Sequence record: MW822008.1
Source of the DNA: Escherichia phage BF17
Reading direction: 5' to 3' (one strand)
Length of the DNA: 64,000 bases
Shown here: positions 14,684 to 60,480 of the stretch, piece by piece
Layout: each line of letters opens with the position of its first letter
Position numbering within the stretch: the first letter of the stretch is position 1
Made by a program: the position numbers and the translations under genes
The notes under the pieces: generated by a model
The model's input: the letters and a program-made list of their open reading frames with translations, nothing else
Database searches by the model: none
What the model was told of the DNA's origin: nothing

Positions 14684-14715
14684 AGAAAAGGAGAGCAAAT
14701 GCTCTCCTTTTTGTT
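14684..14715. terminator. Bidirectional intrinsic terminator
   Basis: aaaa-AGGAGAGC-aaat-GCTCTCCT-ttttgtt between the clp gene (+) and the giant gene (-); almost the same sequence recurs at 60449-60480. Confidence 0.75.
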
Positions 14716-17700
14716 ATTTAACTTCTAATAGATTTTTAATGTCATTACCACTTATTTGCAAACTATCGGAGTAAACAGATAGTTCGATTGGATAACTGTT
14801 AACACTATAACGTTTTAGTAAATTAACTTTACCTAAGTTCAAGCCATTAAATGAATATGTCACATTCTCTTTAAAGTCGTGTTCTGCACTATACATTACC
14901 CCACGGAGTAAGTTATTTGCAAAACGTACTTCAACTTTTTCAAAACCAAGAGAAATAATATCATTCATACTTGCACCAGCACCAGATAGAACATTATTAG
15001 TAACACTATATGGACTAACTGAATCTGGTTGTGAAACATAAGTAGCATTTTCTTCACTGATAGCAGTAATGTTAGTTACTGTTCCACCAACTACACCAAT
15101 ATATGTATCACTAACTAGTGGATATGCATATTCCCATACCCCGTCAGCATTCAGTACTGGTTGAATAATACCAACATCATACTCGAACACGTTAATTTCC
15201 ACACTATCAGTCATTTTGGTTCTCACTAACTCACTAAGAACACCTGCACCAGTAATTGGTAAGTTATATCCGTTATCAATGGTAACACCATCAACTTCAA
15301 ATATCTCGTTAGACACTACCCAAACATCAACGTCATCTGGTGTAATTCCATCATTATAAGAACCACCGTATAGTGTTGTGTCGTAGAATACTTCATAGTT
15401 CATTGCGTCGATAGCATAATTTCTATTTGTTTCATACAACTTAACACCATCAACCAAGAATTCTGGATCAGCAAAGGTTCTAATACGAACGATGTTCAAT
15501 GCTAGAGGTATTGCTGGTTCATTCTGTTGTTGTTTAGTGATGTTATCATAACGAAGCACAACTCCAGTACTATCTAGTAGTTCTACAGTTCCGTTCGCAG
15601 TGTTTCTTACTGTGTACAAGGTTGGTGTGGTGTCAGTTTTGATTTTTGATACACTCAAGATGGTTTCCCATGCATTGTTTTGGTATCTCACATAATCTTC
15701 ACCATCAGTTGTGAATATCATAACCTTATCACCATCAGATAGGGTATTGTCAATTACTTCAGCTTCTGTATCACTAACAATTGATTTAATTTTATAGAAG
15801 TATTTTTCATCATACTTACTGTATGATTTACTAATATCATTTTCAATCTTAGCGTAAGAAGGAATACTAACAATTGCTTCTGTTGTTTTATAAGGGTTGA
15901 TAATAACCATACCTTCAGTTTTATATCTACTATTGTCTCTCAATTGAACTAGTGAAACACTATTGAATCCATAACCATCAACTGTGAAGCGAATCTGACC
16001 AATCTTTCTTCCTGATGGGTTAATATCAGAAATGTCGATTATGTACGGATCTACTTCGTCACCTTCAACTTCCCATTTTAACTCGGAAGTTTGTGATTCA
16101 AGTGCTAGGTTATCAAATGCATTCATATCATCGTAGTACTTAGCATCGGTGATGCTATCTAGGATGTGCTGATAATCACTGTACATTGGGTTATTTCTAT
16201 CAAGAGGTAAGTCATCAAGATTTATTTCTGCCAATTGAACTAGTTGACCGTCAGTTATGAATTTGTCTTCCATGAAATCATCAATGCTTTGGTCATCTGG
16301 GATACTCTCGTATACACCATTAACATTAACATAAACATATTTTCGTGGCATCATAGTAAATGCATGAATATCAATAGGCATTCTACTTAGTATTTCTTCA
16401 GCCTTTTCATAATGGTCGGTAGCATCTTTGTCATACAAACCACGCATACCGGACAATACATGAATTGCGTCATTGTAGAATCGTTGATTTCCATTTTCAT
16501 CTACATGGCGATATGAATAAACACCATATTCAACTTCAAGTATAATTCTAACTTCATCATCAGTTGCAGTAGTATTGTTTTCTTTAATTAAAGAAACATA
16601 CTTATTATACAACTCACTACTAACTTCAAAGTAACCAAAGTTATAATCAGTACTGGATGCATAACCAAACGGTAGTCTGGTACTTGGATTATCATCATAG
16701 GTTAACCCACTAAATCCACATCCAACCTCATCATGAATTACTTCATCATCTGCACCTGTGTACAATTTCAAACGGTTAGAGAGTGTGTTATACTGAACAT
16801 AATGATTTACGTCATTAAACATTTCATTTTGTGTTGATTCTTTATATACACGATTCAACGTTTCTGTGAATTCTGCGGTTGCTACCAAATCATCTGCATG
16901 GTCTGCATACCATTGGTTAACACCGTAAGCAATCCCTAGAGTTACGTTCAATTCTGGGTAATACAATTGCATCTGATAAGCAACCAATAGGTCGAAATCT
17001 TCATCACTGTATTCTGGGAATGTATATTTGTAACGTTGTAATTCAAAATTACTAACAACATCTTGTGCATTAGATTGATATTTCTTATTCACTTCTTCCA
17101 ATACATCAACACTTGCCAAATTATCATTTGGTTTACATTGAGTGTTGTCGTAGTGCATGATAACATCAATTTCTTGGAAACGGCGATTAGGTGTTACGAA
17201 ATCACTTGGCAATTCACCAACTTGCTCCCAACGTTGAGTTACCTCATTGAATTGAGCATATTCATAATCCCAAATGTCTTTTTCCGTTTTAACCCAAGTC
17301 CCATCTGCAAATATATAGCCATTAGGATCTAAATCATTACACAAACCTTTAATTAAATCATCATCTGAAGTTTTCTGTTCAATCTGGGAACGAATCTTAG
17401 TTCTATATGGTTTAACTTCTTCAAAGTACTCAACGATTTGATTAATCAAGTTGTCGTTGGAATAGTTCTGTACTAATGATTGTTCTAAACCTACAATATA
17501 AATGTAAGATGTTTTGAATACCCAATCAACAACGCTTTGTTCTACGTGAACATACTTAACCATATCAAACACAATTTCACTCTGATGTAAGTCGAATGAG
17601 TTCTTCAATAAAGCTAGTGCTTTACGAACGTTAATCTCACGATTACTCAACGAACCATTAGCATCACGAACTGTATAGTCAGCGTATAACATATCATTCA

Positions 17701-20700
17701 ATTCAACTGTACTATTTTCACGACCAATTGCTTTCCAGTAAACTGAATCACGTGATTGTGCTTTAATGTACAATGTCCAGATGCCATCAACATCTGTAAT
17801 TCTGATAATGTCACCAACTTGATAGTTCTTAGTGTTTGCATCTTCTAGGCTGGATTCTTGTGTATATGCAGTATTTTTATCGTATCCAATATCATACCAA
17901 TCTGCTAGTGACCAGTACTGGGTCATGTCCAATGAAGTTCCTAGTGCTTCAACATAGTCTGATTGTTTAATCATTTTCTGTTGACCTTCACCACGGTTTT
18001 CCAATGTAATGGTAACCACACTACCAGCACTTGATGGACTATTCATTAGATGAATATAACCATTAGCATCAATATGCACAAAATATACAGAGCTAGTTGA
18101 TAGTGGGGTAGGTAATACACCACTAGTACTTACTAGTACTGCGTCGTTTTCTTTGAACTTGTCACTTTCAGGTGCAATGACTAATTCACTATTGTAAGTT
18201 AGCACACGATATGATACTTCATTCGGGTTAACTTCAGTAGTTTTAACATTAAACACTTCGTCCATTAGAACAGTGTTAGTTGTTATATTCTGTGAGCGAT
18301 AATAGTTATTTGCACTTTCTACAAAGTTTCTACGAGCTTCAATTACATCTTGGAACCAAGTCTTATTAGAACCTAAACCGTTTGGTACTAAAGGATATAG
18401 TAAATCAATAACAGTTCCTGATTCAGTAGTTTCTTGACCAATCATAGAATTCCACATAGAAGTCCAGATTGATGGATTGAAGTTATAGCTATCACCTTCT
18501 TTACATAATTGATACTGGTCATGTTTAATAACTTCAGTATTATCCATGTAATAAGAAACAGTTAAAATACTTGTGTCATCGTTGACTTCAAATTGCATAT
18601 TACTTAGAATGAACGAGCTTTCATTGATTGGTGCAAACCAAGGAATGTTAAGCTGTGCTGGTTCTTTAATAATACGAGCAATATCAGTACAAGATTTAGT
18701 TCTGGAATGTAATGGTGGTACATAAATTGTATCACGAACCCAGAAATAGTATTTTGTAACATAAGTATCAGTTGTGCTATCATATTCTAAGAACGTACTA
18801 TAATTATCTTCCAATGCGGTTCCGCTTGGTAGGTACATAGTGTTGTTTTTATTTTTGTTAGCAACGTCTTTACAGTATTTGTCCCAGTTATATGGTTCAA
18901 CTGGTGAACATACCCATTCAAGAACATCAACAGTACTGTGCGGTAACAATCTACCCCAGTTATAACGTTTATATTCATTTGTTGCATCAACATCCACATT
19001 ACCGTCAGCATCATAGATTGCACGAGTGTAATCTAAGTAGAAAGCAGTGCTGGTGTTCCACCAAACCTGACCAACTTTATCAGCACCCCATGCTTGAATC
19101 AATTCACCATTGCTGTTGTATTGTGCTGGGTCAACTGGAGATGTGTAGGTAACGTTCTGCATCGCTGCACCAGGAATAACACCGTTGATTGGGTCAAACA
19201 CGTTTAGGTACAACGCAGTAATGTTAGTACGTTCATCATATGTAGTTGGACGGTCAAACAAAGTACTTTGTGGAGCTTTAAAACTATATTTTCTGTCAAT
19301 GTATTCCTGACGCATCTCTTCAGTACTGAATCGTGAAACATAACGATACAAGCGTGGGCGAGTATCAGGATCAGTGAAGTCAATAGTGATTGAAGTGTCA
19401 AACGGAACTACCATAACTCTAGGGTCATTACCCGCAGTATAATATTGACTTTCTATAGTCAATGTATCTGGCATAAAGTTAGTTTCATCAACAAAGTAAT
19501 AATAATCACCATCATTTAGTGGGATATCATCACTTAGAGTTACTTTACAGAATTGTTCTGCATATACATCGGTATTTTCAATTGGAACGATAGAGAGCAT
19601 CTCAACTTCAGTGTCTACTAGTTCGAAAATATTCCACAAATCATTACCATCTTTAAACATCCATACAGAATCTGGGATTTCACCACTGTTATTCATATAA
19701 TTGATACGATCATTATATGCAGTACTGAAATCTTTAGTAACGTATGAAATTTCATCTAGTGTTACAGGACCAATGTCTGGAAGTTGGATATTCTCACTTC
19801 TTCCACTACGCATTGGGAATGAAAACTTACCATTTGGACGAGTAATCCAGCGTGAGTCAACCCCTTGTTCACCGTAATAAACAATACCATTACCAGTACC
19901 ATTTGATGTAGCATTAACATCAAACGAAACCATCTGTGGTTGTTGTTTAAATTGGTCATTGATTAGTTTAAATTGTAGATTTTTCTTACCATTGATATTA
20001 CCATAAGTACCAATCTTAAATGCCCATTCCTGAAGTGCTTTATATTCATCAGTGTCGTAAGATTTAGAAACGCGTAGTACTTTTTCCATTACTTGGTTAG
20101 TACCTTTGTCATGAATGAATCCTTTATAGAAATCAACACGACTAACATCACTACTAATCATACGTTGTAGATAATCACGAGTTTGATAGCCAATCAAGTG
20201 ATTTGATAACTCTTGAAGCTGAACATCACTCACAGGAGTTTCACTATTATAATATAATTCAAAATCAGTTACTAATTTTTCAAATGATGGTAAAGTTCCT
20301 GCTTCTAGGATAATGAAACCAGGTGCTTGTAGGCGACCAGTCCATGACCCAGTAATGTAACCATACATTTTAATCAATTCTTGAATAGCACCATAAGTTG
20401 GTTGGTAAATGTAATCACCAAAGATAGTTTTATCATCAAAAACAACTGCGTGTTCATATGAACTTAGGCTCAAACGAATCAACGCCATACGTTTTTGTGA
20501 TTCAGATGTAGTTCTCACTGTGAATACGTTACCGATACGCGAAGTTTCGATTTCATATTGACGGATGCCTTGGTTTTCATCATCGAGTAGTGACCAAACA
20601 CCACCACTATTCTGTGTAACAGATTGAACTGAACCAAAATCCGCACCAAATTTAGCATTAGCTGCACTTGGAGTACAGGAGATGAACTCACCAGTACTTA

Positions 20701-23700
20701 AATTATTCTGACTCCAAATAACAAAGTCTTTAGCAATAGTTGTCCAGTCTTGTTGAGTACCACTATCATTTACATCTTCAAAAATCCAGCCATGTTCTTT
20801 TAGATATTCACCATATCCACAAATGAAAGTATAAACTTCTTGGTATGTATTGAATATTTTACCATATTCTAATGTACCTTCAGATTTCCATTCATTGTAA
20901 TGAACAACAGTTCTGTCTTCCAATTTAAGAGTTACTTTTCTTCCATTTTTAACTGGAATTTTATATTTAAATTTAGCACCAACTAAATCATAACCATCAA
21001 TTTGATATGCACTACCATTCCAAGTAATTTTTACTGCACTCATTTGCTCATCGCGAATGTTATTGGAACGAACTAGACCGATAGTTTGGTTTTCTTGTGA
21101 AATCAAACCGAAAGATTTAGCAGTGAATGTCAATTGGTCTGCTTTAGTAAAGCCACCAATTTTGTGAGCGACATTGACATAAGAAGAACGAACAACGTCA
21201 CCGTATTTGGTGGTAATGTTCTTATTCTGATACATCAAATAGTCACTAACAAACATTTGATAACCGATAGTACGGGTGTTTTTCTCACCATGTACTAATG
21301 TAGTACTGTCAAAGTTTAGACGCTTACGGGTTTCACCATAAAGGAACTGTGAACCATCAGTATAAACTGGTTTAAGGTTATCATTACGGGTATCCCAGTA
21401 ATAGTTTGCAAACTGTGCTGGTTTTGCTTTGTATAGAAGAAGCATTTGGTCATAAGCAAACATCGCAGTGTTCATGTAAGTGAATTCCATGTCACCCATG
21501 TCACCATAAGACCACGGTTCTGCACGATGATCTAAATTACCACTAACAAGACCTAAAACTTCAGGTGCAATATACTCAACTTCACAAATATCAATACCAG
21601 TACTGGTTTTCTCGCCAGTCTTAGTGATTTTAAATGGCTGTACACCGAAACGCTTGTATTTGTCATATTGACCACGGCGTTCACCTGACAAAATAGTACC
21701 AGTACTGCTATCACCGATAGTACCATCAATATCCCACAATCCACTTGGGACCAAATCACCATTTTCATTCATTACTAGTGCTTCATACACATAAACAACA
21801 TCACCCTCACGTTCACCAACTTGAACTGCGGTTGGTTCGTATTCTTGGTTCCACCAAGTAGGACGTTGAGAGAAGCCCATCATTTCCCACGGATGGGTTG
21901 CTGGACGATATGTGCCATATTGGTCAGTATAGATTGCACGCCATGAACCACGAGCAGGAATTTCAGTACGTTGACCATCAACAACATAATAACTACCAGT
22001 ATAGTTCCAAGTTCTCCAGTTATTTGCATCATAATCATGAGTACTGTTACTAATGCCATTGGTTGCTGTGAAGTTAATGTAACCACGTAGTAATAGAGTT
22101 TTCTTTTCTTCTGCACTATAATCAGTACCAGTGAAATATGGAGTTGGGAATAGGTCTTCACTGTTTAGTACTGGTTTATAATCAATATCCTTGAAAGTAA
22201 GATCAATACTATTAAAGATACGATTTTCCAATTCAAAAACTACGTCATCCATTTTATCAACACCATTGATAACACGGTATGCTTTTGAAATAATACCAGT
22301 ATGACTGATATTATAACAGCTAGATTTACTACCAGCAGTTAAGAATGTTGCTTTTTGTGGTGTATAAGCTTGCAAAATACCCAAGAACTGTGGAGTTGGT
22401 GGGACAAATGCACGAATAAACCCAGCAGTGCTTGCAACGTTGTCATAGTAGAATGGGAATGTACTATCACGTCCCATATTAATAGCTGTTAGAATCGCAT
22501 CTACGATGTTTGATGCACTATTACCAAGAAAAGCACTTGGGTCTTCTTCATACAAACGAAGCATTTGAGTGTTGAACTTGTTAATGAAGCGGAAGTATTC
22601 TGCTTGCATAAACATGATTGATTCAAACAAATCAATATCTTCATTAGCGGTATGTGCCATTAGTGGTAACATGGACGCTTCGTTTTGAATAATTTTAGTG
22701 CCTACACCATTATTAACCAAACCAGCAGCCAAACGTTCTTCGTAATTGTTAAAGTCATCAGCAGAACCAGATGTAATATTCTTTTGAATAATATCTTGGA
22801 AGTGCAGGGTGTAATCACCTTGGTTGATGTATTCAATGTTTGAATTATATGGGTTATTTTGTAGATTAATTGGAACTTCATATGCACCCAACTCTTTATT
22901 AGGAGTGATAGTGCTACTATAAGTTCTGATTTGTACAACAGAATCTTCATCCAAATCAACAGAGCTATCAATTGTAATACTTTGTACTTGATTATTAACT
23001 ACAGTTTTTGTGTATTCTTTTATTTCCACACCATCAACAACTAGTTCGATAATATCATCAGAATTATCTAGTACTTTTTGTGCCAATTCAAATGTATGAT
23101 TGTACTTAACGCTTTGTACCCCATCACCAACGATAACATGCCAATCAAGATATGTTTCACGTTCTGCTTTGTAATATTGATAAGTTCTGTCAACTTCAAT
23201 TACATAAGCATACATTCCTTCAACTGGGTCTTTGAAACTTTCCATGTCATAAACAGTACTGAACACGCGGAACATTACTGTACGTTCAACCTGTGGAGTT
23301 TGTTTAACATATTGTTTGGAGTATTCAGTACTACGAACCCAATCAGTTTCTAGGTTCATTGTATTACCTTCACCAATTACGTTATAGTAATATAGTCCAT
23401 CAATTTCAACTTCCACACCCAAATGCTCGTAAGTATAACGAGTTGATTGTAGGAAATTCTCATATGTGTAATAATTGTAATCACCTAGTTCAATATTATA
23501 ACCATAAACGCTATCAGTTGCATAATTATAGTTAATTTTAAAACCAAATAGTGAAGAACCAGTAAAAGTACTTGATGGATAGGTAGTAGTGTTGTTTAGT
23601 TTAACACCATTACGGTCATACAATTGGAATTGTGGAAATACGTTCACAGAAGTTTTAGACTGTGCTTGAATCCAATGAGAACCGTCCCAATACATGGAAC

Positions 23701-24685: not shown

Positions 24686-24722
24686 TTTTGGACTCCATAT
24701 AATTCGTTCATTCATTTGATTT

Positions 24723-24730
24723 ATTTATGA
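24723..24730 (-). promoter_or_regulatory. Late-promoter-like CATAAATA (minus strand)
   Basis: Sits between the terminator 24731-24757 and the giant gene RBS. Confidence 0.3.
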
Positions 24731-24757
24731 TATAAAAAAGACGTTCCGAAGAACGCC
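24731..24757 (-). terminator. Intrinsic terminator with UUCG tetraloop (minus strand)
   Basis: Minus strand reads GGCGTTC-TTCG-GAACGTC-TTTTTTAT just after the 1153-aa gene stop. Confidence 0.65.
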
Positions 24758-24765
24758 TTAATGTG

Positions 24766-28293: not shown

Positions 28294-28296
28294 CAA

Positions 28297-28325
28297 AAAG
28301 AAAAGCACCCCGAAGAGTGCTTTTA
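28297..28325 (-). terminator. Intrinsic terminator with UUCG tetraloop (minus strand)
   Basis: Minus strand reads AGCACTC-TTCG-GGGTGCT-TTTCTTTTT after the gp25-like gene. Confidence 0.65.
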
Positions 28326-39405: not shown

Positions 39406-39414
39406 TTAAAAGGA

Positions 39415-39440
39415 AAGGGAGCCTTAGCTCCCTTTTTTTA
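39415..39440. terminator. Bidirectional intrinsic terminator
   Basis: aaagg-GGGAGC-ctta-GCTCCC-tttttttat where gp46 (+) and the endo VII-like gene (-) converge. Confidence 0.7.
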
Positions 39441-39915
39441 TATCTACCATATTTAATTTGCCTTCCTTGATAAGCTTTCTGGCTTGCTTAACACGAGCAG
39501 CATTGTTTGCACCAGGGATAACACCTAACTCTTCCAGTATTGCATTCTGTTGTCCTGCTGGGAGCCTTTTAAACTTATTCGTATCGATTGTTAGTGCAGT
39601 GTGATGTATAACTTGCTCATCTTCAGGAATGCTGTTATTACGCTCCAGATAATCCGCAAGATTTCGTAGTACCTCGTATAAGGGTTTATCGGTTAAGTGC
39701 TTCATATAGCGATTAAAGCTGTTCTGTACTTTACCTTCCCATGCGTTCACTTCGTTCTGGAGAACTTCACGACAGTGTTGATTCTCGAAGTGATAGTGAT
39801 CAAGTACTGGCTTAGTTATTGGTTCCTTAATTATAGGATCAATTCCTTTTTGCTTCTTTAGTAATTCATTTCGATAGTTTGCAGCTTCTTTACTATCTTT
39901 TAATCTTTTCTTCAT
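39424..39915 (-). CDS. Endonuclease VII-like protein (T4 gp49 homolog) lacking the zinc-binding cysteines
   Basis: Blocks LDHYHFE, NEVNAWEGKVQNSFNRY, YEVLRNLADYLE and KFKRLP parallel T4 endo VII (LDHDHE, CNLCNAAEGQMKHKFNRSGL, DYLEWLENLLTYL, EFSRLGK) from memory; the CxxC pairs are absent. Confidence 0.55.
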   Translation of the reverse strand: MKKRLKDSKEAANYRNELLKKQKGIDPIIKEPITKPVLDHYHFENQHCREVLQNEVNAWEGKVQNSFNRYMKHLTDKPLYEVLRNLADYLERNNSIPEDEQVIHHTALTIDTNKFKRLPAGQQNAILEELGVIPGANNAARVKQARKLIKEGKLNMVDIKKGS

Positions 39916-47775: not shown

Positions 47776-47786
47776 CATTTTAAAAA

Positions 47787-47794
47787 TATAAATA
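47787..47794 (+). promoter_or_regulatory. T4-type late promoter TATAAATA for the scaffold gene
   Basis: Exact TATAAATA ~48 nt upstream of ATG 47842. Confidence 0.5.
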
Positions 47795-47841
47795 TTTGTA
47801 TGTTGAAGTACAGATATTTCAGTACTTAAAGGAGAGAACGA

Positions 47842-48957: not shown

Positions 48958-48995
48958 ACATTTTAAAGCATTTTAATAATCAAATTTTTCAGTTC

Positions 48996-49003
48996 TATAA
49001 ATA
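48996..49003 (+). promoter_or_regulatory. T4-type late promoter TATAAATA for the major capsid gene
   Basis: Exact TATAAATA ~45 nt upstream of ATG 49048, inside the conserved block AAATTTTTCAGTTCTATAAATAATATCATACT. Confidence 0.55.
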
Positions 49004-49047
49004 ATATCATACTGAAAAACGAATATAACATCTTTAAGGAGATAATA

Positions 49048-50223: not shown

Positions 50224-50246
50224 TAATAAAGAATTTAAATATACTA

Positions 50247-50276
50247 GGGACTCTTCGGAGTCCCTTTTCTTTTTTC
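50247..50276 (+). terminator. Intrinsic terminator with UUCG tetraloop after the capsid gene
   Basis: GGGACTC-TTCG-GAGTCCC-TTTTCTTTTTT. Confidence 0.8.
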
Positions 50277-50287
50277 AGAAAAAAAGC

Positions 50288-50316
50288 TTGACAAGTAGAT
50301 TTTAATTATATATAAT
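50288..50316 (+). promoter_or_regulatory. Consensus sigma70 promoter
   Basis: TTGACA (50288-50293), 17-bp spacer, TATAAT (50311-50316). Confidence 0.65.
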
Positions 50317-50351
50317 TACCACATACCAAAAATCACAAAGAGACAAATAAA

Positions 50352-51458
50352 ATGCCAAAAGTAAGTATCGACAAAGAAAAATTCATTGAAGAGATGAACA
50401 ACAAGTATGGAGCATATGGTGAATTTGATTTCAGCACTTTAGTATTCAAAGCCAGTAAGACAACAGTTAAATGTAATAAATGCGGAAAAGAAAATACTAA
50501 ACCTGCACTACGTCACATTTCATGTACATGTTCTTCATGTTATTCAAACATGTCACAGCGTTCGAACAACGAAAAATTTATCAGCACGGTAGAAACTAAA
50601 TTTGGAAAAGATAAATTCAAATTTGATAAACTAAATTACATTAACGCTATAACAAAAGTAACCATACTCTGTACAGACGAAGAACATAACGATTACTTTG
50701 AAATTACACCAAACAAATTTCTTACTGGTAAGGGATGTCCTATATGTAATAAAAATGAAGCATACAGTACTGAAGAATTCGTAGAAAAAGTAAAAGAAAA
50801 TTATGGTGATTCATTAGATTTAACTAACACAGTATATGTAAATCAAAAAACTAAAGTAACTGTGTATTGTAAAGCGGGTAACCATGAATGGACAGTTGAT
50901 CCGAAAACTTTACTTGTTGGTAAAACTGGCTGCGGTACATGTTCTGGTAAAGGTGGAAGAAGCACTGAACGTTTCATTGAACTTGTGTCGCCTATCCATA
51001 ACCATAAGTATGATTATAGTTTGGTTGAATATACTATAAGCGAGAATTATGTTGATATTGTATGTCCAACTCATGGTGTTTTCTCCCAACAACCAAAAGC
51101 ACATATGGCTGGTAAAGGATGCCCATCATGTGGTGAATATGGATATCAGCCATCAAAACCTGGATATTTCTATGTTCAAAAACTAACTAATAAAGATAAG
51201 ACAGTGTACAAGTATGGAATCACTGGTGATATGAAACGCCGTGTAAATGAGCAAAGTCGTCATTCTGGTTTTGAACACACAGTACTGATAGAACGTTACT
51301 TTGAAGATGGAAATCAACCATTACTGTTGGAAAAGTTCATAAAGAAATACATTGAAAGTGGTGTTGTAAGTACTGAAGAGTTGCCATCAGGATTTACTGA
51401 AACTTTTGATGCTAAGTATCTTGAAAGTGTTTTAGAAATTGTAAATACTTTTAAGTAA
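50352..51458 (+). CDS. T5orf172 / GIY-YIG-like domain protein with N-terminal Cys-rich tandem repeats (putative homing-type nuclease), 368 aa
   Basis: C-terminal GYFYVQKLTNKDKTVYKYGITGDMKRRVNEQ fits the T5orf172 motif; N-terminal half has at least three repeats containing GKGCPxC / GKTGCGTC. Confidence 0.55.
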   Translation: MPKVSIDKEKFIEEMNNKYGAYGEFDFSTLVFKASKTTVKCNKCGKENTKPALRHISCTCSSCYSNMSQRSNNEKFISTVETKFGKDKFKFDKLNYINAITKVTILCTDEEHNDYFEITPNKFLTGKGCPICNKNEAYSTEEFVEKVKENYGDSLDLTNTVYVNQKTKVTVYCKAGNHEWTVDPKTLLVGKTGCGTCSGKGGRSTERFIELVSPIHNHKYDYSLVEYTISENYVDIVCPTHGVFSQQPKAHMAGKGCPSCGEYGYQPSKPGYFYVQKLTNKDKTVYKYGITGDMKRRVNEQSRHSGFEHTVLIERYFEDGNQPLLLEKFIKKYIESGVVSTEELPSGFTETFDAKYLESVLEIVNTFK

Positions 51459-51481
51459 ACAACCATAAGGAGTTGACACGG

Positions 51482-51832
51482 ATGTTAACTGTATACATTT
51501 TTAAGAAAGAAGAGTACTTAAAGAGTCAGTACTCAAAAATTGAGATTAACGTTCCATACGGGACTTTAGTTGGTTATGATGAAGCTAGTGAAACTTTGTA
51601 TTATAATGATGATAGACTGGACTATAGTATTGATTCATTTATTGAAGACATACTTAATAGTAACACTGAAGATATGTTGTATGAAGAATACTTAGATAAG
51701 TACAAAGAACGTATGTCAAAGTTACATGCTGATGCTCCAGTACTGAACATTTCAAAAACTCCTTCTGAATTCGAGCCACAAAACCCATTCCAACGCCTAA
51801 TTGATGCTGGGGTAAATTTCCGAATTACTTGA
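51482..51832 (+). CDS. Hypothetical protein (~116 aa)
   Basis: Start ATG 51482 with RBS TAAGGAG; the ORF-track start 51473 is a TTG inside the RBS region. Confidence 0.45.
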   Translation: MLTVYIFKKEEYLKSQYSKIEINVPYGTLVGYDEASETLYYNDDRLDYSIDSFIEDILNSNTEDMLYEEYLDKYKERMSKLHADAPVLNISKTPSEFEPQNPFQRLIDAGVNFRIT

Positions 51833-51871
51833 TTAATAAATATCTTCATATTACTGATGGAGATATTTTCT

Positions 51872-52180
51872 ATGTCACAGATATGTTATGTTATAGTAAA
51901 TGATGCATGGCCTGATTATGTTAAGATAGGATTTACCAGTAAATCTGAAATGACAGAACGTTTAAGGACATATCAAACTGCTACACCTTTTAGAGATTTT
52001 GTGGTATACCATGAAGTACACTTTGAAGATGCACGTTTAGCAGAGAAAGAAATTCACAAAAGACTAAAACAAATGAACGCAGTAAGGCAACCTAACACCG
52101 AGTGGTTCAAGATGCCTAAGAAGATAGCAGCGAACATCGTTGATTCTGTTCTTGACGATATGGAAAACGACTTGCTATAG
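51872..52180 (+). CDS. Small T5orf172 / GIY-YIG-like domain protein (~102 aa)
   Basis: YVIVNDAWPDYVKIGFTSKSEMTERLRTY fits the same motif; start ATG 51872 with RBS GGAG (ORF-track ATG 51857 lies inside that RBS). Confidence 0.5.
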   Translation: MSQICYVIVNDAWPDYVKIGFTSKSEMTERLRTYQTATPFRDFVVYHEVHFEDARLAEKEIHKRLKQMNAVRQPNTEWFKMPKKIAANIVDSVLDDMENDLL

Positions 52181-52221
52181 TAATAAATATAGTATATATT
52201 AATCATTAAAGGGATTTATAC

Positions 52222-53847: not shown

Positions 53848-53848
53848 T

Positions 53849-54367
53849 ATGAAAACATATACACATTTCAAAAAATATATCCCAGTAGAAAAGAAACATG
53901 GAGATAATGTTCTTTATCTATTGTCAGATGAGGGTGCTGACTGGTATGATTGTCAAAACGAATTCAGACAAGATACTTTGAAAGTTCAGTACTCTGATGA
54001 TGGTTATATTGCACAAGCATCATATGATGTAACATTGTTAGTACCGTATGGATACAGTGTTTCTGAGTTGGAGCATGATGGTGATGAAGATGAAGTAGTT
54101 GGTAAAATCTATGATGGAAGTAAAATTTCTGATTATGTTGAATCTACTGATGAAAAGATCAAACGTCTATCATCTGAGCACCAAGAATTAAGAACCGTAG
54201 CAATTAATGAGTTGAATAACATTAAGATGGCGATAGATCTTGAGGTAGCAACTGATTATGAAATAGAACTGTTTCCTAAGTTGAAAGCATATGTTCTTGA
54301 GCTATCATCTCTAACAACATCTGAATTTAGTAAGAAGAAGTTTTCGTTCCCTGTTAAACCTGTTTAA
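53849..54367 (+). CDS. Putative tail fiber assembly chaperone (172 aa)
   Basis: Immediately follows the fiber gene with a 1-nt gap; size and acidic composition fit Tfa-type chaperones; RBS GTGGAG. Confidence 0.4.
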   Translation: MKTYTHFKKYIPVEKKHGDNVLYLLSDEGADWYDCQNEFRQDTLKVQYSDDGYIAQASYDVTLLVPYGYSVSELEHDGDEDEVVGKIYDGSKISDYVESTDEKIKRLSSEHQELRTVAINELNNIKMAIDLEVATDYEIELFPKLKAYVLELSSLTTSEFSKKKFSFPVKPV

Positions 54368-54376
54368 AAGTTTTTT

Positions 54377-54405
54377 TGGAACAAAATCGTAAGTAGTGAT
54401 ACAAT
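54377..54405 (+). promoter_or_regulatory. Sigma70-type promoter with extended -10 for the DsbA-like gene
   Basis: TGGAAC, 17-bp spacer, TGaTACAAT (-10 at 54400-54405). Confidence 0.45.
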
Positions 54406-54408
54406 GTA

Positions 54409-54444
54409 GTCATCTTACAGAGGTTGTGAGATGACATTTTTTTC
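54409..54444 (+). terminator. Intrinsic terminator overlapping the promoter's start region
   Basis: GTCATCT-tacagaggttgtg-AGATGAC-ATTTTTTT beginning 4 nt after the -10 hexamer. Confidence 0.6.
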
Positions 54445-54467
54445 AAAACACATGGAGAAGCAAACAA

Positions 54468-54773
54468 ATGGCAAAAGCTAAAAAAGAAGTTAAAGTTGAA
54501 ATTCGTGACCTAAATGATGAACAACGTAAACGTCTAGGTGATGCACTAAACAACGCAGTAGTACAACTTACTTTTATTGACGACACCAAAGCATCCTATG
54601 CAGATTTCATTAGTTCCATCTCTGATGAACTAGGTATTGATGCATCCGATATCAAACAAGCCGCTCAACGTATCTACAAAGGCGATTACTTTGATAAACA
54701 AAACAAACTCGATAATATCGAAACTATCCTAAGTGTTACTAACAATTTGCCACAAGCAGATGACGATTACTAA
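54468..54773 (+). CDS. Small acidic DNA-binding protein, T4 DsbA-like (101 aa)
   Basis: MAKAKKE..., SDELGIDASD and IYKGDYFDK loosely parallel T4 DsbA from memory; RBS GGAGAAG; sits next to the polymerase gene. Confidence 0.4.
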   Translation: MAKAKKEVKVEIRDLNDEQRKRLGDALNNAVVQLTFIDDTKASYADFISSISDELGIDASDIKQAAQRIYKGDYFDKQNKLDNIETILSVTNNLPQADDDY

Positions 54774-54797
54774 TAAGTACTAAAAACTAAACTTTAT

Positions 54798-54828
54798 AGC
54801 CTCCAATGAATGGGGGCTTTATTTTTAA
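54798..54828 (+). terminator. Intrinsic terminator
   Basis: AGCCTCC-aatgaat-GGGGGCT-TTATTTTTAA (one G-U pair). Confidence 0.55.
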
Positions 54829-54855
54829 CTTAATAAACGTAAAGGAATACAAACG

Positions 54856-57800
54856 ATGTATATCGATGCTTATATGGAACGTAAACGTACTGGTGATATT
54901 TTGCACGTAGCAGAACGTAAAAACGGTAAACGTATTCTACGTCAGTTGGACCCAGTATATGAATATTATGTTGAATCTCCTACTGGTGAACACAAAACAA
55001 TTTATGGAACCAACGCAAAGCATTTGGAGTTTGAAACTCAATCACAGATGAATAAAAGCGTTGAGCAACATAAAAATGAAGGTCTACGTATTTTTGAAAG
55101 TGATTGCAACATTACCTTCAAAACGTTGGCTAGAGAATACATGGGTAAAGGTTCGCCGGATTTGAACGTGGCATTTTTCGATATCGAAACCGACTTCCAT
55201 AAGAAGTTTGGTTATGCTCCACCATCAGATCCATTCAACCGTGTAACTGCAATTTCTCTATATCAATCATGGACTGGTAAGGATTATGTACTGACTTTGC
55301 CACCAACTGATATGGAAATGTACGAAGCACAAGATATTGTTCGTCAGTTAAACGAAGAAACTAACGACCCTAACAGTACTGTCATCCTTTATACGGATGA
55401 GAAAGAAATGTTTATGGAGTTCTTTAGTCTAATCGATGACTCTGATGTAATTTCAGGTTGGAACAGTGAATTCTTTGATATTCCATATATGGTCAACCGT
55501 ACCAAGAAAATCTTCAACGAAGCAACTACTGCTCGTTGGTGCTTGTGGAATAAAAAACCAAATGCTCGTGAAGCTGATAACTTTGGTAAAACTGTAGTAA
55601 CGTATGATCTTATTGGTCGCGTACACTTAGACTATCTTGCTCTTTATAAGAAACATGCTGGTCAAGTTGAACAGTCGTACAAACTAGATTATATTGCTGA
55701 AAAAGTAACTAAAGAAAACAAAGTATCCTATGAAGGTTCATTGGATAAACTATACCGTGAAGATTATATTACATTCTTGCGTTATTCTAAGCAGGATAGT
55801 ATTCTTCTAAAGAAAATTGATGCTAAATGTGACTTTATCAACCTGCATAACCGTCTTGCTCATAAAGAATGTGTACTAATTAGTACTACAATGGGTTCGG
55901 TTGCACTAATCGACACTGCTATCATCAACCTTGCTCACAGTCGCGGTGAAGTTGTTTTTAACAAAGCACCGAAAGATGATATTGAGTTAGATCCAGAGAT
56001 GGAGTACTATGGTGAAGAAGGTGATGAAGAAGATGAGAAAATCAGTGCAAAAGCTGCTGGTGCATGGGTTCAAGATCCAGTTCTTGGCCTTGTTAGCGAT
56101 TTGGGATGTACAGACTTTAACTCATTGTATCCAACTGTACTACGTACACTTGGCATGAGTACTGAATGTATTCTTGGACAACTTCGTCAAGACTACACTG
56201 ATGCATATCTTGCTGCTAAAGTACAAGAGCAAAAAGCTAAATCCAAATCTAAAGCGTTTGAACCTGATTGGACCGCTGCATGGCATGGTTTATTTGCTGC
56301 TGTAGAATTTACAATGGTTCATGAAAAATCTGACAAAACTTTGATTGTTGATTTAGAAGATGGTAGTTCGTTCAATGCAACTGGTAAAGAATTGTATGAT
56401 ATTATCTTTGCTGAAGACAGTACTATTGTACTAAGTGCTAACGGAACACTTTTTGATAAGTCTAAGTATGGTGTAATTCCAGATATTCTTACTCAATGGT
56501 ATTCTGAGCGTAAAGCACAACAAAAAATGGTAATCGACTACAAACACATGTACAGTGATGGGTGGGAATTCAATGGTTCTGAGAAGGTTGAACCTTTGCT
56601 ATCTAACTACACAAGTGGTACAATGTTCCGTACAAACTTACATGACAATGATCCTGTTTACCTATTACGTATTGCTATTGGTAAAGGTCAATGGGAAGAA
56701 GTTGCAAAACTCATTGTGGAAAATGGTTTAGTACTGAAAGATGGTCGTATTTTCTGTGCAACGGAAGATAAGAATTACTTCAAACAGCAAAGTGCATTCT
56801 GGAAACAGAACCAGCAAATTCGTAAGATTCTTCTAAACAGTCTATATGGTGCACTATTGAACAAAGGTTCACGTTTCTTTGATAAACGTTTAGGTCAGTC
56901 CGTTACCTTAACTGGTCGTTCTATGACTAAACATATGGCAAGCCGTATCAATGAAATCACTACTGGCGTTTATAATCACCAAGGTGGCTCTGTGATTTAC
57001 GGTGATACTGACTCCGTTTACTTCAGTGTAACTCATTACCTGAAAGAACAAGGTATTCCATATAATCTTTCGAAAGAAGAAATCGTTGACATGTATATCA
57101 AAATTGGTGATGAAGTTGGTGAATCATTCCCTTCATTCATGAACGAAATGTTCAATACTGGTATTGAGAAAGGTAAGATTGTTGGTGCAGACCTAGAGAT
57201 GGTCGGTTCCCGTGGTCTATTCCTGAAGAAAAAGCGTTATGCAATTCTCAAGTACTGGGAAGATGGTTTCCGTAAAGATGTTGATGGAAAGCCTGGTGAA
57301 ATTAAAGCGATGGGTCTTGAAATTAAACGTTCAGATACGCCAAAATACATCCAGAACTTCCTAGAAGAGACTCTAATTGCATTGCTGGTGGGTGAGTCTG
57401 AAGCTCAACTTAAACAGCGTGTACGTGACTTTAAAGAGGTATTTAAAGACATGCCTGTACACGAAAAGGGTTCACCGAAAACTGTTAAGAACTATACCAA
57501 CTTAGAAGCAGAATATGAAGTTTCTGGTAAATGTAAAGTTGGTCACGTATTAGCAGGTATTCAATGGAACCGTCTACGTGAAGTATATGATGACAAAACT
57601 GTACCTGAAGTAACTGACGGTACAAAAGTAATTGTATGTAACTTAAAAGATAACCCGATGGGTATCAAAGCAGTAGGTTACCCAATTGACTGTGTGGAAT
57701 ATCTACCTGAATGGTTCTTAGAACTACCATTTGATACAGAGAAAATGGAAGAAATAGTTCTAACTAAAAAATTAGAAAACATTTTTGGTATTCTGGATAT

Positions 57801-57861
57801 GGATATTGGTATTCATGAGAAAAGCACAGCAGCCGTTAATAACGGATTCTTCACCTGGTAA
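54856..57861 (+). CDS. 43: DNA polymerase, family B (gp43-like), 1001 aa
   Basis: Exonuclease motif FFDIETD; polymerase motif A DFNSLYPTV, motif B KILLNSLYGALLN, motif C VIYGDTDSVYF; RBS AAAGGAA. Confidence 0.9.
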   Translation: MYIDAYMERKRTGDILHVAERKNGKRILRQLDPVYEYYVESPTGEHKTIYGTNAKHLEFETQSQMNKSVEQHKNEGLRIFESDCNITFKTLAREYMGKGSPDLNVAFFDIETDFHKKFGYAPPSDPFNRVTAISLYQSWTGKDYVLTLPPTDMEMYEAQDIVRQLNEETNDPNSTVILYTDEKEMFMEFFSLIDDSDVISGWNSEFFDIPYMVNRTKKIFNEATTARWCLWNKKPNAREADNFGKTVVTYDLIGRVHLDYLALYKKHAGQVEQSYKLDYIAEKVTKENKVSYEGSLDKLYREDYITFLRYSKQDSILLKKIDAKCDFINLHNRLAHKECVLISTTMGSVALIDTAIINLAHSRGEVVFNKAPKDDIELDPEMEYYGEEGDEEDEKISAKAAGAWVQDPVLGLVSDLGCTDFNSLYPTVLRTLGMSTECILGQLRQDYTDAYLAAKVQEQKAKSKSKAFEPDWTAAWHGLFAAVEFTMVHEKSDKTLIVDLEDGSSFNATGKELYDIIFAEDSTIVLSANGTLFDKSKYGVIPDILTQWYSERKAQQKMVIDYKHMYSDGWEFNGSEKVEPLLSNYTSGTMFRTNLHDNDPVYLLRIAIGKGQWEEVAKLIVENGLVLKDGRIFCATEDKNYFKQQSAFWKQNQQIRKILLNSLYGALLNKGSRFFDKRLGQSVTLTGRSMTKHMASRINEITTGVYNHQGGSVIYGDTDSVYFSVTHYLKEQGIPYNLSKEEIVDMYIKIGDEVGESFPSFMNEMFNTGIEKGKIVGADLEMVGSRGLFLKKKRYAILKYWEDGFRKDVDGKPGEIKAMGLEIKRSDTPKYIQNFLEETLIALLVGESEAQLKQRVRDFKEVFKDMPVHEKGSPKTVKNYTNLEAEYEVSGKCKVGHVLAGIQWNRLREVYDDKTVPEVTDGTKVIVCNLKDNPMGIKAVGYPIDCVEYLPEWFLELPFDTEKMEEIVLTKKLENIFGILDMDIGIHEKSTAAVNNGFFTW

Positions 57862-57870
57862 GGAAAATAT

Positions 57871-58012
57871 TATGATTATTGCAGACGAAACTAAACTAAA
57901 ATATGACGAAGTAAATGACGTATTCTCTGATGAATCACTAGCACTGTCTGAGGACAGTGTTAACGAGGCGTGGGAACAGTACGTTTTATGGAGTGCATCC
58001 CAAGGAGAGTAA
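57871..58012 (+). CDS. Hypothetical small protein (~47 aa)
   Basis: ATG 57871 with RBS AAGGAAA right after the polymerase stop; the ORF-track start 57785 overlaps the polymerase gene. Confidence 0.35.
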
Positions 58013-58013
58013 T

Positions 58014-58316
58014 ATGGAAAATATCTATAAGCGTGTTGGTGCAGTACTGGAAGATAGTACTATCGTAAATTCAGTACTTGCATACAATAATGATGATGAA
58101 GTTGTTCTAATGTCTGCTGGTTTCACCAGATCTGGCTCTGTTGAAATTGACGGTGAGATTGTTGACGTCTATTCTATTGAAAAGAAACGCAAAGTTGTCA
58201 TTGTTGAAGATGTTAACACGTTAAAAGACTTAGAACATCTACGTTACAAATTCAACATTGGTGCAGGTGCAAACGCTGATAAGCCGTACCTTAAACGTTG
58301 GAACACAAAATACTGA
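58014..58316 (+). CDS. Hypothetical protein (~100 aa)
   Basis: ATG 58014 with RBS AAGGAGAG; the ORF-track start 57957 has no RBS. Confidence 0.45.
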   Translation: MENIYKRVGAVLEDSTIVNSVLAYNNDDEVVLMSAGFTRSGSVEIDGEIVDVYSIEKKRKVVIVEDVNTLKDLEHLRYKFNIGAGANADKPYLKRWNTKY

Positions 58317-58323
58317 TAAAAAA

Positions 58324-58353
58324 TTGAGACAAGCATCATTCACGAGATATAAT
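58324..58353 (+). promoter_or_regulatory. Sigma70-type promoter for the clamp-like gene
   Basis: TTGAGA, 18-bp spacer, TATAAT (58348-58353). Confidence 0.45.
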
Positions 58354-58420
58354 GGTGCTTGTAGTAATCTGAAGCATACAAAAACATTTTTGATTAACAA
58401 ATAAAACGGAGAATTATATA

Positions 58421-59152
58421 ATGGATCTACGCAACGTACTACGTGACCTAGTTAACACTACCAACGGCATCGACTTTTCTTGTATCGCAGTTAGCAGTGA
58501 AGACCGTGGTGATGGACAGCGTGTTTACATGGAAGCATACACCGATGACCGCACCCTAGTTATGCGTGCTCACACTAAAGAAGACGTACCAGAAGTTCAA
58601 GGTCGTTTTGGTCTTGGTAACCTAGGTCTTCTACAGGGTCTAATGTCTCTAAAAACTTATAGTACTGAAGGAACTACTATCACTTCTAACTTGAAAGATG
58701 GTGCAGTTAAGAGCCTAGCATTCAAAGCAGAAGATGCAAGTACTACTTTCATGGTTCAACCAGAAAAACTAATTCCAGCCCAGCCTCGTTTCCACGAACA
58801 ACCATATGACGTACAGGTTACACCTAGTGCAGCTAAAGTTCAGGAACTAAAAAGCTTCTCTGGTGTGTTTAAATCTTTCAGTTCTCTAGTAACTCCATAC
58901 ACTGAAGGTGATACTCTTTACTTCCACGTTGGTGAGAAGAACAAAAGTAACCACGTTGGTGCACTAGCATTCTCTAAAACTGAAGGTGAACTAGGTCTTG
59001 GTTTTGGTTATAACATTGATCGTGTTCTACAAGCTCTATCCCGCGTTTCTAACGCAGAATCTGTTACCCTTGGTATTACAAAAACTGGTATGCTAAACGT
59101 AACTCTAGACACTGGTATTGCGGTATACAAGATTTACGTAACTGGTTGCTAA
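58421..59152 (+). CDS. Putative sliding clamp, gp45-like (243 aa)
   Basis: N-terminus MDLRNVLRDLVNTTNGIDFSCIAV resembles the T4 gp45 N-terminus (MKLSKDTTALLKNFATINSGIML) from memory; size and replication-gene context fit; strongly biased codon usage. Confidence 0.5.
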   Translation: MDLRNVLRDLVNTTNGIDFSCIAVSSEDRGDGQRVYMEAYTDDRTLVMRAHTKEDVPEVQGRFGLGNLGLLQGLMSLKTYSTEGTTITSNLKDGAVKSLAFKAEDASTTFMVQPEKLIPAQPRFHEQPYDVQVTPSAAKVQELKSFSGVFKSFSSLVTPYTEGDTLYFHVGEKNKSNHVGALAFSKTEGELGLGFGYNIDRVLQALSRVSNAESVTLGITKTGMLNVTLDTGIAVYKIYVTGC

Positions 59153-59218
59153 TATAAATAATGGGGAACATGGAGTTCCCCAAATTTTTGATTTAAAAAT
59201 AAGTAAAGGAAGACAAAA

Positions 59219-59425
59219 ATGCCATTATATACATATCGTTGTGAAAAAGAAGAATGTAAACACAGTTTAGAAAAGATTGTAAAAATTGCCAATCGTGAAG
59301 AACCTCATGATTGTCCTCAATGTAATGGTGAAAAGACTATGAAGTTGGAAGTTTTTACCCCTGGTGATAAAGGTGCTAATCTTTATTTCCGTGGTAAATG
59401 GTTTGCAAACACTGGAGGTTACTGA
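59219..59425 (+). CDS. FmdB-like zinc-ribbon protein (68 aa)
   Basis: MPLYTYRCEKEEC...CPQC matches the MPxYxYxC...CxxC zinc-ribbon pattern. Confidence 0.5.
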   Translation: MPLYTYRCEKEECKHSLEKIVKIANREEPHDCPQCNGEKTMKLEVFTPGDKGANLYFRGKWFANTGGY

Positions 59426-59426
59426 T

Positions 59427-59729
59427 ATGAAAATTAAAATGATTAACGATTATGTACTGGTTCGTCAAATTGAAGCACAGAATAAAAGTACTGGTGGTAT
59501 TATCCTAGGAAACGTGGAACCACCATGTGTTGGTATGGTGATTTCAGTTGGTGAAGGTAAAGTACTACCTAATGGGCAAATTGCAGAACATAATATTTGT
59601 GTTGGTGATATGGTTGTATTCGGTCGTTCATCACTAAACACTCCTATCACTGAAGATCTTGGTGGTGGTGAAGACACATATTATGTGATGAAAATTGAAG
59701 AAATTTTTGGTAAGAAATCAAATGGCTAA
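59427..59729 (+). CDS. groES: Co-chaperonin GroES homolog (100 aa)
   Basis: MKIKMINDYVLVRQIEAQNKSTGGIILGN...VISVGEGKVLPNGQ...VGDMVVFG...YYVMKIEEI follows the GroES signature along its length; RBS GGAGG. Confidence 0.8.
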   Translation: MKIKMINDYVLVRQIEAQNKSTGGIILGNVEPPCVGMVISVGEGKVLPNGQIAEHNICVGDMVVFGRSSLNTPITEDLGGGEDTYYVMKIEEIFGKKSNG

Positions 59730-60447
59730 AAAAAGGTTTATTCCTTTCTGGATGGTCCCCGCTCATTGGGGACTTTCTGGTAAAGCGAAAGAGATTGCGA
59801 AAGCATACTACTATAACGATGATTATGAAGCTGATATGTTAGTTGCAGAACTTACATATCTAACACCATATGAAGTTGATGTAGCACAGTTGGATATCAA
59901 AAAGAAATACAATGTATTAGAAACTCTTGATTATCTAATAGCACAGGCAGATGTACAATTGAAGTATTCCAAGATTACCCGTGATGAGTATAATGTAAAA
60001 TTACTTGATGCTAAATTAAGTACTGGTGCAATTACTCAAAAAGAGTATGATATGGAAGTAATCGAACTAATGCCTGATGGTGATGACAAACGTCTTAAAG
60101 CTATCGAGTTTGCATATCGTTATGAAGAGATTACACAACAAGAGTATTCAAAGGAAATCTTTACTTTACGTAAAGAACCTTGGATTGATTTGGATGTAGT
60201 ACTTAATCCAGAAACAAATGAAGTTGAATTTGTTTTTGATTATAATGAATACTTTTGGAAAAAGTTAAAAGCGGAAGGTCATCCAGGTAATGACGAAGAA
60301 GAAATTATTGACAACTTCGTTAGAGACATGGGGCGTAAACTAGCTACGGATGATTTCAGTGATGATTATGACGTAAAGCTAGTGAATGCGAACGAAGGGT
60401 TAGAGAATCTACCTGGTTTACCTGAAGGGTTCCGTTCATACAAATAA
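59722..60447 (+). CDS. Hypothetical protein with three ITxxEY repeats (SHOCT-like); start uncertain (59695 or 59722)
   Basis: Repeats KITRDEYNVKLL, AITQKEYDMEVI, EITQQEYSKEIF; overlaps the GroES gene end by 8 nt. Confidence 0.4.
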   Translation: MAKKRFIPFWMVPAHWGLSGKAKEIAKAYYYNDDYEADMLVAELTYLTPYEVDVAQLDIKKKYNVLETLDYLIAQADVQLKYSKITRDEYNVKLLDAKLSTGAITQKEYDMEVIELMPDGDDKRLKAIEFAYRYEEITQQEYSKEIFTLRKEPWIDLDVVLNPETNEVEFVFDYNEYFWKKLKAEGHPGNDEEEIIDNFVRDMGRKLATDDFSDDYDVKLVNANEGLENLPGLPEGFRSYK

Positions 60448-60448
60448 A

Positions 60449-60480
60449 AAAAGGAGAGCAAAAGCTCTCCTTTTCTTTTA
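60449..60480. terminator. Bidirectional intrinsic terminator (near copy of the one at 14684-14715)
   Basis: aaaaaa-AGGAGAGC-aaaa-GCTCTCCT-tttctttt. Confidence 0.75.

Follow-up and report, generated by a model that had tools for sequence, protein, structure and literature searches.

Predicted two-way terminators at convergent junctions

The window analysed here is a stretch of 64,000 nucleotides from Escherichia phage BF17 (sequence record MW822008.1), and our subject is a pair of almost identical hairpins in it, at 14.7 kb and 60.4 kb, each of which appears to belong to an intrinsic terminator that can be read from either strand. In megablast comparisons two stretches of the window are 99.0-99.8% identical to the Escherichia jumbo phages fEgEco12, WPEC5, Turkey3, Ecwhy_1 and vB_Ec-M-J, CMSTMSU is 98.6% identical over the second stretch, and G17, 121Q and PBECO4 are approximately 82% identical to the window. 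fEgEco12 and its kin have been placed in the genus Asteriusvirus (PMC13070987), and judged by these identities the source phage is an Asteriusvirus jumbo coliphage of the RaK2-like clade. According to its open reading frame (ORF) map and the annotation of fEgEco12, the window spans the baseplate, head and DNA-polymerase core, and includes genes for a clp-like ATPase, a virion protein of 3333 aa, baseplate proteins, a gp55-like late sigma factor, gp46/47, endonuclease VII, the portal, the major capsid protein and DNA polymerase. Both gp55-like and sigma-70-like factors are annotated in the records of the clade; no RNA polymerase subunits are annotated among the clade genome records examined, and the distant relative PA5oct depends on the host RNA polymerase (PMC7318152).

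The first element, T14.7 (14679..14712, both strands), is a putative two-way intrinsic terminator that lies where the gene of the clp-like ATPase (+) meets the gene of the 3333-aa virion protein (-). It consists of an A-tract (14679-14689), a stem arm (14690-14696), the loop AAAT (14697-14700), the second arm (14701-14707) and a T-tract (14708-14712), and reads AAAAAAGAAAA-GGAGAGC-AAAT-GCTCTCC-TTTTT. Of the flanking stop codons, that of the plus strand ends at 14680 and that of the minus strand occupies 14714-14716; the predicted folding energy is -17.7 kcal/mol on the plus strand and -16.6 kcal/mol on the minus strand, with z about -6. The second element, T60.4 (60446..60479, both strands), a putative terminator of the same two-way kind, separates a g362-like virion gene (+), whose stop codon ends at 60447, from a g363-like virion gene (-), whose stop codon is at 60492-60494. 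Here an A-tract (60446-60452) is followed by the arms 60453-60459 and 60464-60470 around the loop AAAA and by the T-tract TTTTCTTTT (60471-60479), which gives AAAAAAA-GGAGAGC-AAAA-GCTCTCC-TTTTCTTTT. A preliminary description of the window had placed nearly identical terminators at 14684-14715 and 60449-60480, at points where opposite-strand genes converge, and both statements are confirmed, the first by the stems at 14690-14707 and 60453-60470 and the second by the positions of the stop codons. The same description had the 60.4-kb site abut a pair of paralogous genes (60492-61181 and 61197-61796, both on the minus strand); the two genes are there, and their paralogy is tentative, being suggested by a single pairwise comparison (34% identity over 93 aa, E = 9e-7). 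A Pfam search with one of the pair (60495-61181) gave no match.

A search of the window for GGAGAGC-N4-GCTCTCC with up to two mismatches returned T14.7 and T60.4 only. The expectation from shuffled sequences is 0.05, and two matches were reached in one of 100 shuffles. In a scan for hairpins followed by T-tracts the window gave 15 sites, four of which (8947, 14690, 39417 and 60453) were called on both strands. There are exactly four convergent junctions in the window, and each is filled by one of these two-way terminators. Together with three sites that have UUCG loops they make seven sites with the full anatomy of an intrinsic terminator, four of them predicted to be ready for work in both directions. 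The stems at the seven sites have 6-7 bp with 4-5 G-C pairs and fold at -15 to -20 kcal/mol with their tracts; all 11 strand readings fold as predicted (z -3.2 to -6.2 against shuffles), and at least six T are found in the 9 nt after every stem, on both strands for the four two-way sites. All seven lie 0-25 nt past a stop codon, and the two-way ones fill the 18-44 nt between converging stops. An Rfam search of the whole window matched no family.

For comparison we took a census of the whole genome of fEgEco12 (PP777464.1; 353.7 kb unique), which has 106 strand-specific hairpin-plus-T-tract matches against 5.7 in dinucleotide shuffles. These correspond to 85 sites with an energy filter or 87 with pair-based criteria, and 19 sites are two-way under either. 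From gene tables read by eye, seven of its ten convergent junctions have a two-way terminator. CBB, for its part, was reported with 74 Rho-independent terminators (PMC5259590).

We propose that the elements at 14.7, 60.4, 8.9 and 39.4 kb would be canonical Rho-independent terminators for the host RNA polymerase, built as perfect palindromes. RNA transcribed off either strand would present an A-tract, a purine-rich arm (GGAG/GGGAG...), a loop of 3-4 nt, a pyrimidine-rich arm (...CUCC) and a U-tract. Because a palindrome reads alike both ways, a single element of about 30 bp could stop both converging transcription units, and it would insulate each gene against antisense read-through. From the sequence we infer that it is the host RNA polymerase that terminates at these sites. 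The weakness of r(pyrimidine):d(purine) hybrids presumably explains the preference for pyrimidine-rich 3' arms: a pyrimidine-only 3' arm together with the U-tract would form the weakest RNA:DNA hybrid, and the palindrome would provide it in both directions. The likeness to the intrinsic terminators of E. coli and T4-like phages is close, both in structure (a GC-rich stem of 6-7 bp, a loop of 3-4 nt, an immediate U-tract and a mirrored A-tract) and in position, a few nucleotides from stop codons, and nothing essential differs. The collision-type bidirectional terminators of E. coli described by Ju et al. (2019) are similar in that one element between two convergent genes, with a hairpin involved, sets both 3' ends. 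In the account given in bioRxiv 10.1101/2022.10.23.513370 those elements bear no resemblance to intrinsic terminators and are weak in each single direction, whereas the phage elements look like textbook intrinsic terminators both ways.

Conservation of the two junctions across genera

The junction between the clp-like gene and the giant virion gene and the junction between g362 and g363 are both syntenic, with a two-way terminator, in five genus-level groups, namely Asteriusvirus, Alcyoneusvirus (RaK2), the group of Salmonella phage 7t3, Mimasvirus and Eneladusvirus. The preliminary description had regarded the two sites as insertion-like boundaries, which this synteny does not bear out, and neither junction showed presence/absence polymorphism among the relatives inspected. 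Orthologues of the 14.7-kb terminator, located by tblastn with the C-terminus of Clp and from single records, are present in G17, JNE01, RaK2, 7t3, GAP32, CBB, fHe-Yen9-04 and BF. No related loci were found from the last 400 aa of the giant protein, and a search with the Clp-like protein found 121Q and three distant homologues, with a comparable junction only in 121Q. At the 60.4-kb junction the two-way arrangement of A-tract, hairpin and T-tract is found in 16 of 16 viral contigs, whose g362 homologues are 42-88% identical. In G17 the orthologues of both elements carry an ARNold terminator annotation.

The stems themselves have drifted. At the 60.4-kb site the relatives have GGAGAGC (121Q), GGAGAAC (most lineages), GGAGAATCA (RaK2), GGACGCA, GGACAACA and GGGAGAACAT. 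An RNAalifold consensus of 12 sequences from this site (11 relatives and the window) has 12 pairs, seven of which show compensatory changes, and no pair of the GC core is broken. The 14.7-kb stem is GGAGAGC in G17, 121Q, JNE01 and RaK2, GAGGGC in Salmonella phage 7t3 and GGGAGCC in GAP32, CBB, fHe-Yen9-04 and BF. More generally, six terminator sites that we traced in JNE01, RaK2, 7t3 and GAP32 keep their positions and their stems drift. The compensatory changes of stem pairs suggest that pairing is conserved and not a fixed sequence. Within this drift the two sites have the same stem in Asteriusvirus only; in every other lineage examined the two stems differ. The step from GGAGAAC to GGAGAGC is a single compensatory swap of an A-T for a G-C pair. 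Between the window and G17 all 14 of 14 stem nucleotides are kept at both sites, against 75-84% identity in the 300-nt flanks and loops that differ.

The explanation that we favour, with a probability of roughly 0.85, is that T14.7 and T60.4 are independent, anciently conserved two-way intrinsic terminators whose stems became identical by convergence, given the narrow grammar that such stems obey. Both sites would have been inherited vertically, each in its orthologous position, and would have arrived separately at the same 7-bp stem, the 60.4-kb site through a compensatory change that replaced one A-T pair by G-C in the Asteriusvirus lineage (GGAGAAC to GGAGAGC). The grammar has the stem begin with G at its 5' base and end with C at its 3' base, with a 5' arm of purines as a prolongation of the A-tract, and the GGAGAGC copies would then be alike because very few sequences make a workable two-way terminator.

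Several observations weigh against this explanation. When the genome's own terminator stems are used to build a position-independent model, the terminators of the window are expected to yield no more than 0.02-0.03 identical 7-nt arms, and among the 19 two-way sites of fEgEco12 three pairs of identical stems are seen where such a model expects 0.28. The 60.4-kb site of the 121Q group, read on the minus strand, equals the 14.7-kb site of the window over 32/32 nt, including the loop AAAT (blastn). Hairpin cores begin 7-10 nt past the stop codons, and the 39.4-kb hairpin overlaps a coding end; a terminating ribosome can occlude a terminator so near a gene (PMC4824070), so the efficiency of these hairpins may be lower than their structures suggest. 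The first of these figures had led us to favour common descent of the two stems, which we dropped since the orthologues outside Asteriusvirus have different stems. We attribute the modest excess of identical stems to a grammar that is narrower than the position-independent model captures, occasional sequence exchange being a less likely alternative.

One way to picture such exchange is concerted evolution, in which both sites are ancient and their identity in Asteriusvirus was made or kept by short-patch gene conversion between the two inverted copies of 26-32 bp during recombination-dependent replication. This agrees with the identity of the stems in all Asteriusvirus genomes inspected (the window, G17/121Q and JNE01), with the match between the 121Q group and the window, which is in opposite orientation, and with the genome-wide excess of identical stems. 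We nevertheless regard it as improbable. The loops of the two sites differ within each genome (AAAT/AAAA in the window, ATAA/ATTT in G17, ATAT/AAAA in JNE01), and in all three each site keeps its own interruption of the tract, the 14.7-kb site AAAAAAGAAAA on its upstream side and the 60.4-kb site TTTTCTTTT on its downstream side. A conversion tract as wide as the hairpin would erase such differences in loop and tract, which argues against ongoing homogenisation, and in other genera far longer times have brought no homogenisation. With tetraloops made of A and T only, a TTTTCTTTT tail as common as it is (15/106) and many comparisons, a cross-genome match of 32 nt is unremarkable.

A narrow stem grammar

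The convergence that we favour presupposes that few stems are in use, and the census of fEgEco12 is consistent with this. G(5')-C(3') is the pair at the bottom of the stem in 82 cases and C-G in two, and stems starting with GGAG or GGGAG are found in six of the seven two-way terminators at convergent junctions against four of 78 other sites (p = 3e-6). This style of arm and the recurrent tail UUUUCUUUU distinguish the lineage from intrinsic terminators in general. Across genera the stems stay within a small set (GGAGCC, GGGAGC, GGGAGCC, GGGGAGC, GGAGAGC and GGAGAAC), and one stem may turn up at different sites: GGAGCC is found at the gp46/endonuclease VII junction in GAP32 and at 8.9 kb in the window.

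The hairpin is not confined to this lineage. In IMG/VR the pattern AAGGAGAGC-N4-GCTCTCCTT has 119 matches in at least 55 unrelated flank contexts; an A- or T-tract accompanies 116 of them, and the loop of 46 is UUCG or its complement. With the arms swapped (AAGCTCTCC-N4-GGAGAGCTT), a control of equal composition that is the same DNA palindrome, the count is six. This strand asymmetry of about 20-fold fits a terminator that acts on RNA and shows that such a design has arisen repeatedly. In blastn searches the GGAGAGC hairpin element was also found in Vibrio, Acinetobacter and Alteromonas phages, in several copies in some of them.

The same counts bear on the idea that the elements are not primarily terminators and serve instead as cruciform or protein-binding sites, as recombination hot spots, as stabilisers of mRNA 3' ends or as Shine-Dalgarno/anti-Shine-Dalgarno mimics (AAGGAG...CUCCUU). 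The 5' arm does contain a perfect AAGGAG, the 3' arm resembles the 3' end of 16S rRNA, and palindrome-processing nucleases (gp46/47-like and endonuclease VII-like) are encoded beside the 39.4-kb site. A role as the target of a GGAG nuclease like RegB of T4 was considered as well, and no evidence for it emerged, no test being aimed at it. An excess of 119 over six for one arrangement of the arms, and of 82 over two for one orientation of the bottom pair, fits RNA terminators and not DNA palindromes; moreover, U-tracts follow the stems directly, the sites are exactly at gene ends, and compensatory pair changes keep the pairing without fixing the sequence. This makes a role other than termination highly unlikely as the primary one.

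If two-way termination within a narrow grammar is the right reading, the value of the result is mainly one of annotation, with seven terminators confirmed and each convergent junction closed by a compact two-way terminator. A functional grammar so narrow would make unrelated sites converge, which is a warning against calling short identical regulatory hairpins mobile elements, and the asymmetry of the arms (119 against six) together with the recurrent UUUUCUUUU tail could help terminator design or prediction.

That tail is a U-tract with one central C. It is the commonest in fEgEco12, where it follows many unrelated stems at 15 of the 106 strand-specific sites, and in the window it is found at 28296-28304 (-), 50265-50273 (+), 60471-60479 (+) and 14681-14689 (-). 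An inverted duplication, suggested by the tract TTTTCTTTT/AAAAGAAAA that the 14.7-kb and 60.4-kb elements share, was rejected on this ground, the tail being the genome's commonest.

Portable terminator cassettes

The preliminary description had taken the sharing of one sequence by two boundaries as a possible sign of a portable terminator cassette, that is, a mobile or recombination-spread unit dropped at two module boundaries. In related phages only one kind of portable terminator has been described, the PeSL (promoter-early stem-loop) of T4-type phages, a composite terminator/promoter cassette documented as a mediator of module shuffling (PMC2839356, PMC4122927). Composite cassettes of this type do occur in the early regions of our phage's relatives, as fEgEco12 has, outside the part that corresponds to the window, eight copies of GGGTTGAC-UUCG-GTCAGCCC-TTTTTGC-TATAAT and four copies of GGGATTGAC-UCCG-GTCAGTCCC-TTTGC-TATTAT. 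In both, the 5' arm of the hairpin doubles as the -35 box (TTGACT), with the U-tract inside the spacer of 17-18 nt before the -10 box, which in the UUCG family has a TGn extension (TGCTATAAT). These UUCG and UCCG cassettes correspond to PeSLs as conceived by Arbiol, Comeau and Krisch (PMC2839356, PMC4122927). They are located at 307-327 kb and 9.5-19.5 kb of fEgEco12. When searched with a 51-nt query, the UUCG family was found at 5-10 places per clade record, with matches to Vibrio and Aeromonas phage records as well.

True multi-copy terminator families thus exist in the same genome, and with the rarity of identical 7-nt arms under a naive chance model they are what speaks for a cassette at 14.7 and 60.4 kb. 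The GGAGAGC pair is of a different nature. An alignment of the two sites with their flanks, named beforehand as the test that could refute a cassette, shows a similarity that ends with the tracts and the hairpin (about 26-32 nt), the 50-nt flanks being unrelated in either orientation. A PeSL combines a strong sigma-70-like promoter with its stem-loop and is conserved over about 100 bp, whereas the pair measures about 30 bp and no promoter-like match overlaps 14.65-14.75 or 60.40-60.50 kb. PeSLs lie in hyperplastic regions between variable ORFans, with indels between close relatives; the two junctions are in the conserved structural and replication core, where synteny and terminator are already found in five genera and no such polymorphism is seen. 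The difference between the two stems in every lineage outside Asteriusvirus and the presence of the same hairpin in dozens of unrelated phages also argue against a mobile unit, and we consider a portable cassette very improbable.

Another reading is that the terminators are a dispersed repeat family, in which the pairs with GGAGAGC, GGAGCC and GGGAGC stems were seeded or kept identical by occasional short-patch recombination. This too is improbable; if true, exchange of the PeSL style would reach beyond the early ORFan regions and take in the conserved structural core.

A further terminator family of fEgEco12 lies outside the window, at 330-348 kb, where an array of about 14 paralogous minus-strand genes is annotated as encoding chromosome-condensation regulators or RCC1-like proteins. 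Most of these genes are followed by a terminator of the GCCAGTAC...GTACTGGC family, of which we found 13 copies, and this family has evidently been duplicated along with its genes.

Terminators with UUCG loops

Three terminators of the window have a UUCG tetraloop, as had been described for 24731-24757, 28297-28325 and 50247-50276, and the preference for this loop that had been proposed on their account is borne out by the census. The first (24731..24757, minus strand, one-way; hairpin 24740-24757) lies after a baseplate-wedge gene and before the giant gene and reads GGCGTTC-UUCG-GAACGTC, followed by U6. The second (28296..28320, minus strand; hairpin 28305-28320) follows a gp25-like gene, with GCACTC-UUCG-GGGUGC and then UUUUCUUUU. 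The third (50247..50273, plus strand; hairpin 50247-50264), after the gene for the major capsid protein, has GGGACTC-UUCG-GAGTCCC and again UUUUCUUUU. In all three the UUCG is read on the strand of the upstream gene and is closed by a C-G pair.

Under the pair-based criteria 11 of 52 tetraloops in fEgEco12 are UUCG, against 0.15 expected from base composition, an enrichment of about 70-fold, and four more are UCCG. All 11 are closed by C-G and they have six distinct stems; as seven of the 11 copies come from one repeated cassette family, the number of independent stems is about 5-6. Over the whole window the hexamer CTTCGG is no commoner than expected (seven found, 9.5 expected), and three of the seven are the terminator loops. 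At the wedge-gene site 7t3 and GAP32 keep UUCG on the stem GGGCATC, and RaK2 has lost it. At the gp25 site 7t3 has GGCATCC-UUCG-GGGTGCC, and JNE01 has the stem of the window with an AUGA loop. The capsid site is identical in JNE01 and fEgEco12, has GGATGC-UUCG-GCATCC in GAP32 and has lost UUCG in RaK2 and 7t3. The retention of UUCG at the same sites with different stems across genera indicates that the loop itself is selected, probably because the extra-stable C(UUCG)G nucleates a short terminator hairpin quickly. The enrichment among terminators is real, and the phenomenon has been known since T4: the C(UUCG)G hairpin was first noticed in T4 mRNA (Tuerk et al. 1988, as cited in PMC4371310). 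The loop, the C-G closing pair, the transcribed strand and the intercistronic or terminator position are all as in T4, to which this myovirus is related, and we found no difference. The terminator and UUCG readings are thus supported, and already known.

Right after the T-tract of the capsid terminator begins a stretch of about 1.2 kb (50274-51470) that has no counterpart in fEgEco12, which makes this a genuine insertion boundary. The insert contains a perfect TTGACA-17-TATAAT promoter (50288-50316) and an ORF of 368 aa (50352-51458) with weak, sub-threshold matches to a zinc finger, DUF723 and T5orf172, and may encode a homing-endonuclease-like protein. The corresponding spot after the capsid gene is occupied by a different gene in JNE01 and by an annotated endonuclease in RaK2.

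The junctions at 8.9 and 39.4 kb

Elements of similar design, with A-tract, hairpin and T-tract, had also been described near 8.9 and 39.4 kb, and their hairpins are indeed present at 8947-8961 and 39417-39432. The first element (8935..8968, both strands) has GGAGCC-AAT-GGCTCC and predicted folding energies of -17.0 and -15.9 kcal/mol. It lies between a plus-strand structural gene (stop codon 8934-8936) and a nudix-like minus-strand gene (stop codon 8970-8972). The second (39408..39439, both strands) has GGGAGC-CTTA-GCTCCC and separates a gp46/SbcC-like gene (+, stop codon 39403-39405) from an endonuclease VII-like gene (-, stop codon 39424-39426). Its orthologues have the stems GGGAGC in JNE01, GGGGAGC in RaK2, GGGAGCT in 7t3 and GGAGCC in GAP32.

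The endonuclease VII-like ORF (39424-39915, minus strand) terminates within the 39.4-kb element, its stop codon being in the hairpin loop and its final codons in an arm and the A/T tract. The same overlap of the gene end with the terminator is seen in GAP32. A last observation concerns the other end of the clp-like gene, just upstream of which the divergent gap from 12295 (-) to 12368 (+) contains, at 12326-12353, a sigma-70 promoter that matches the consensus perfectly and has a TG extension (TTGACA-16-TGnTATAAT).

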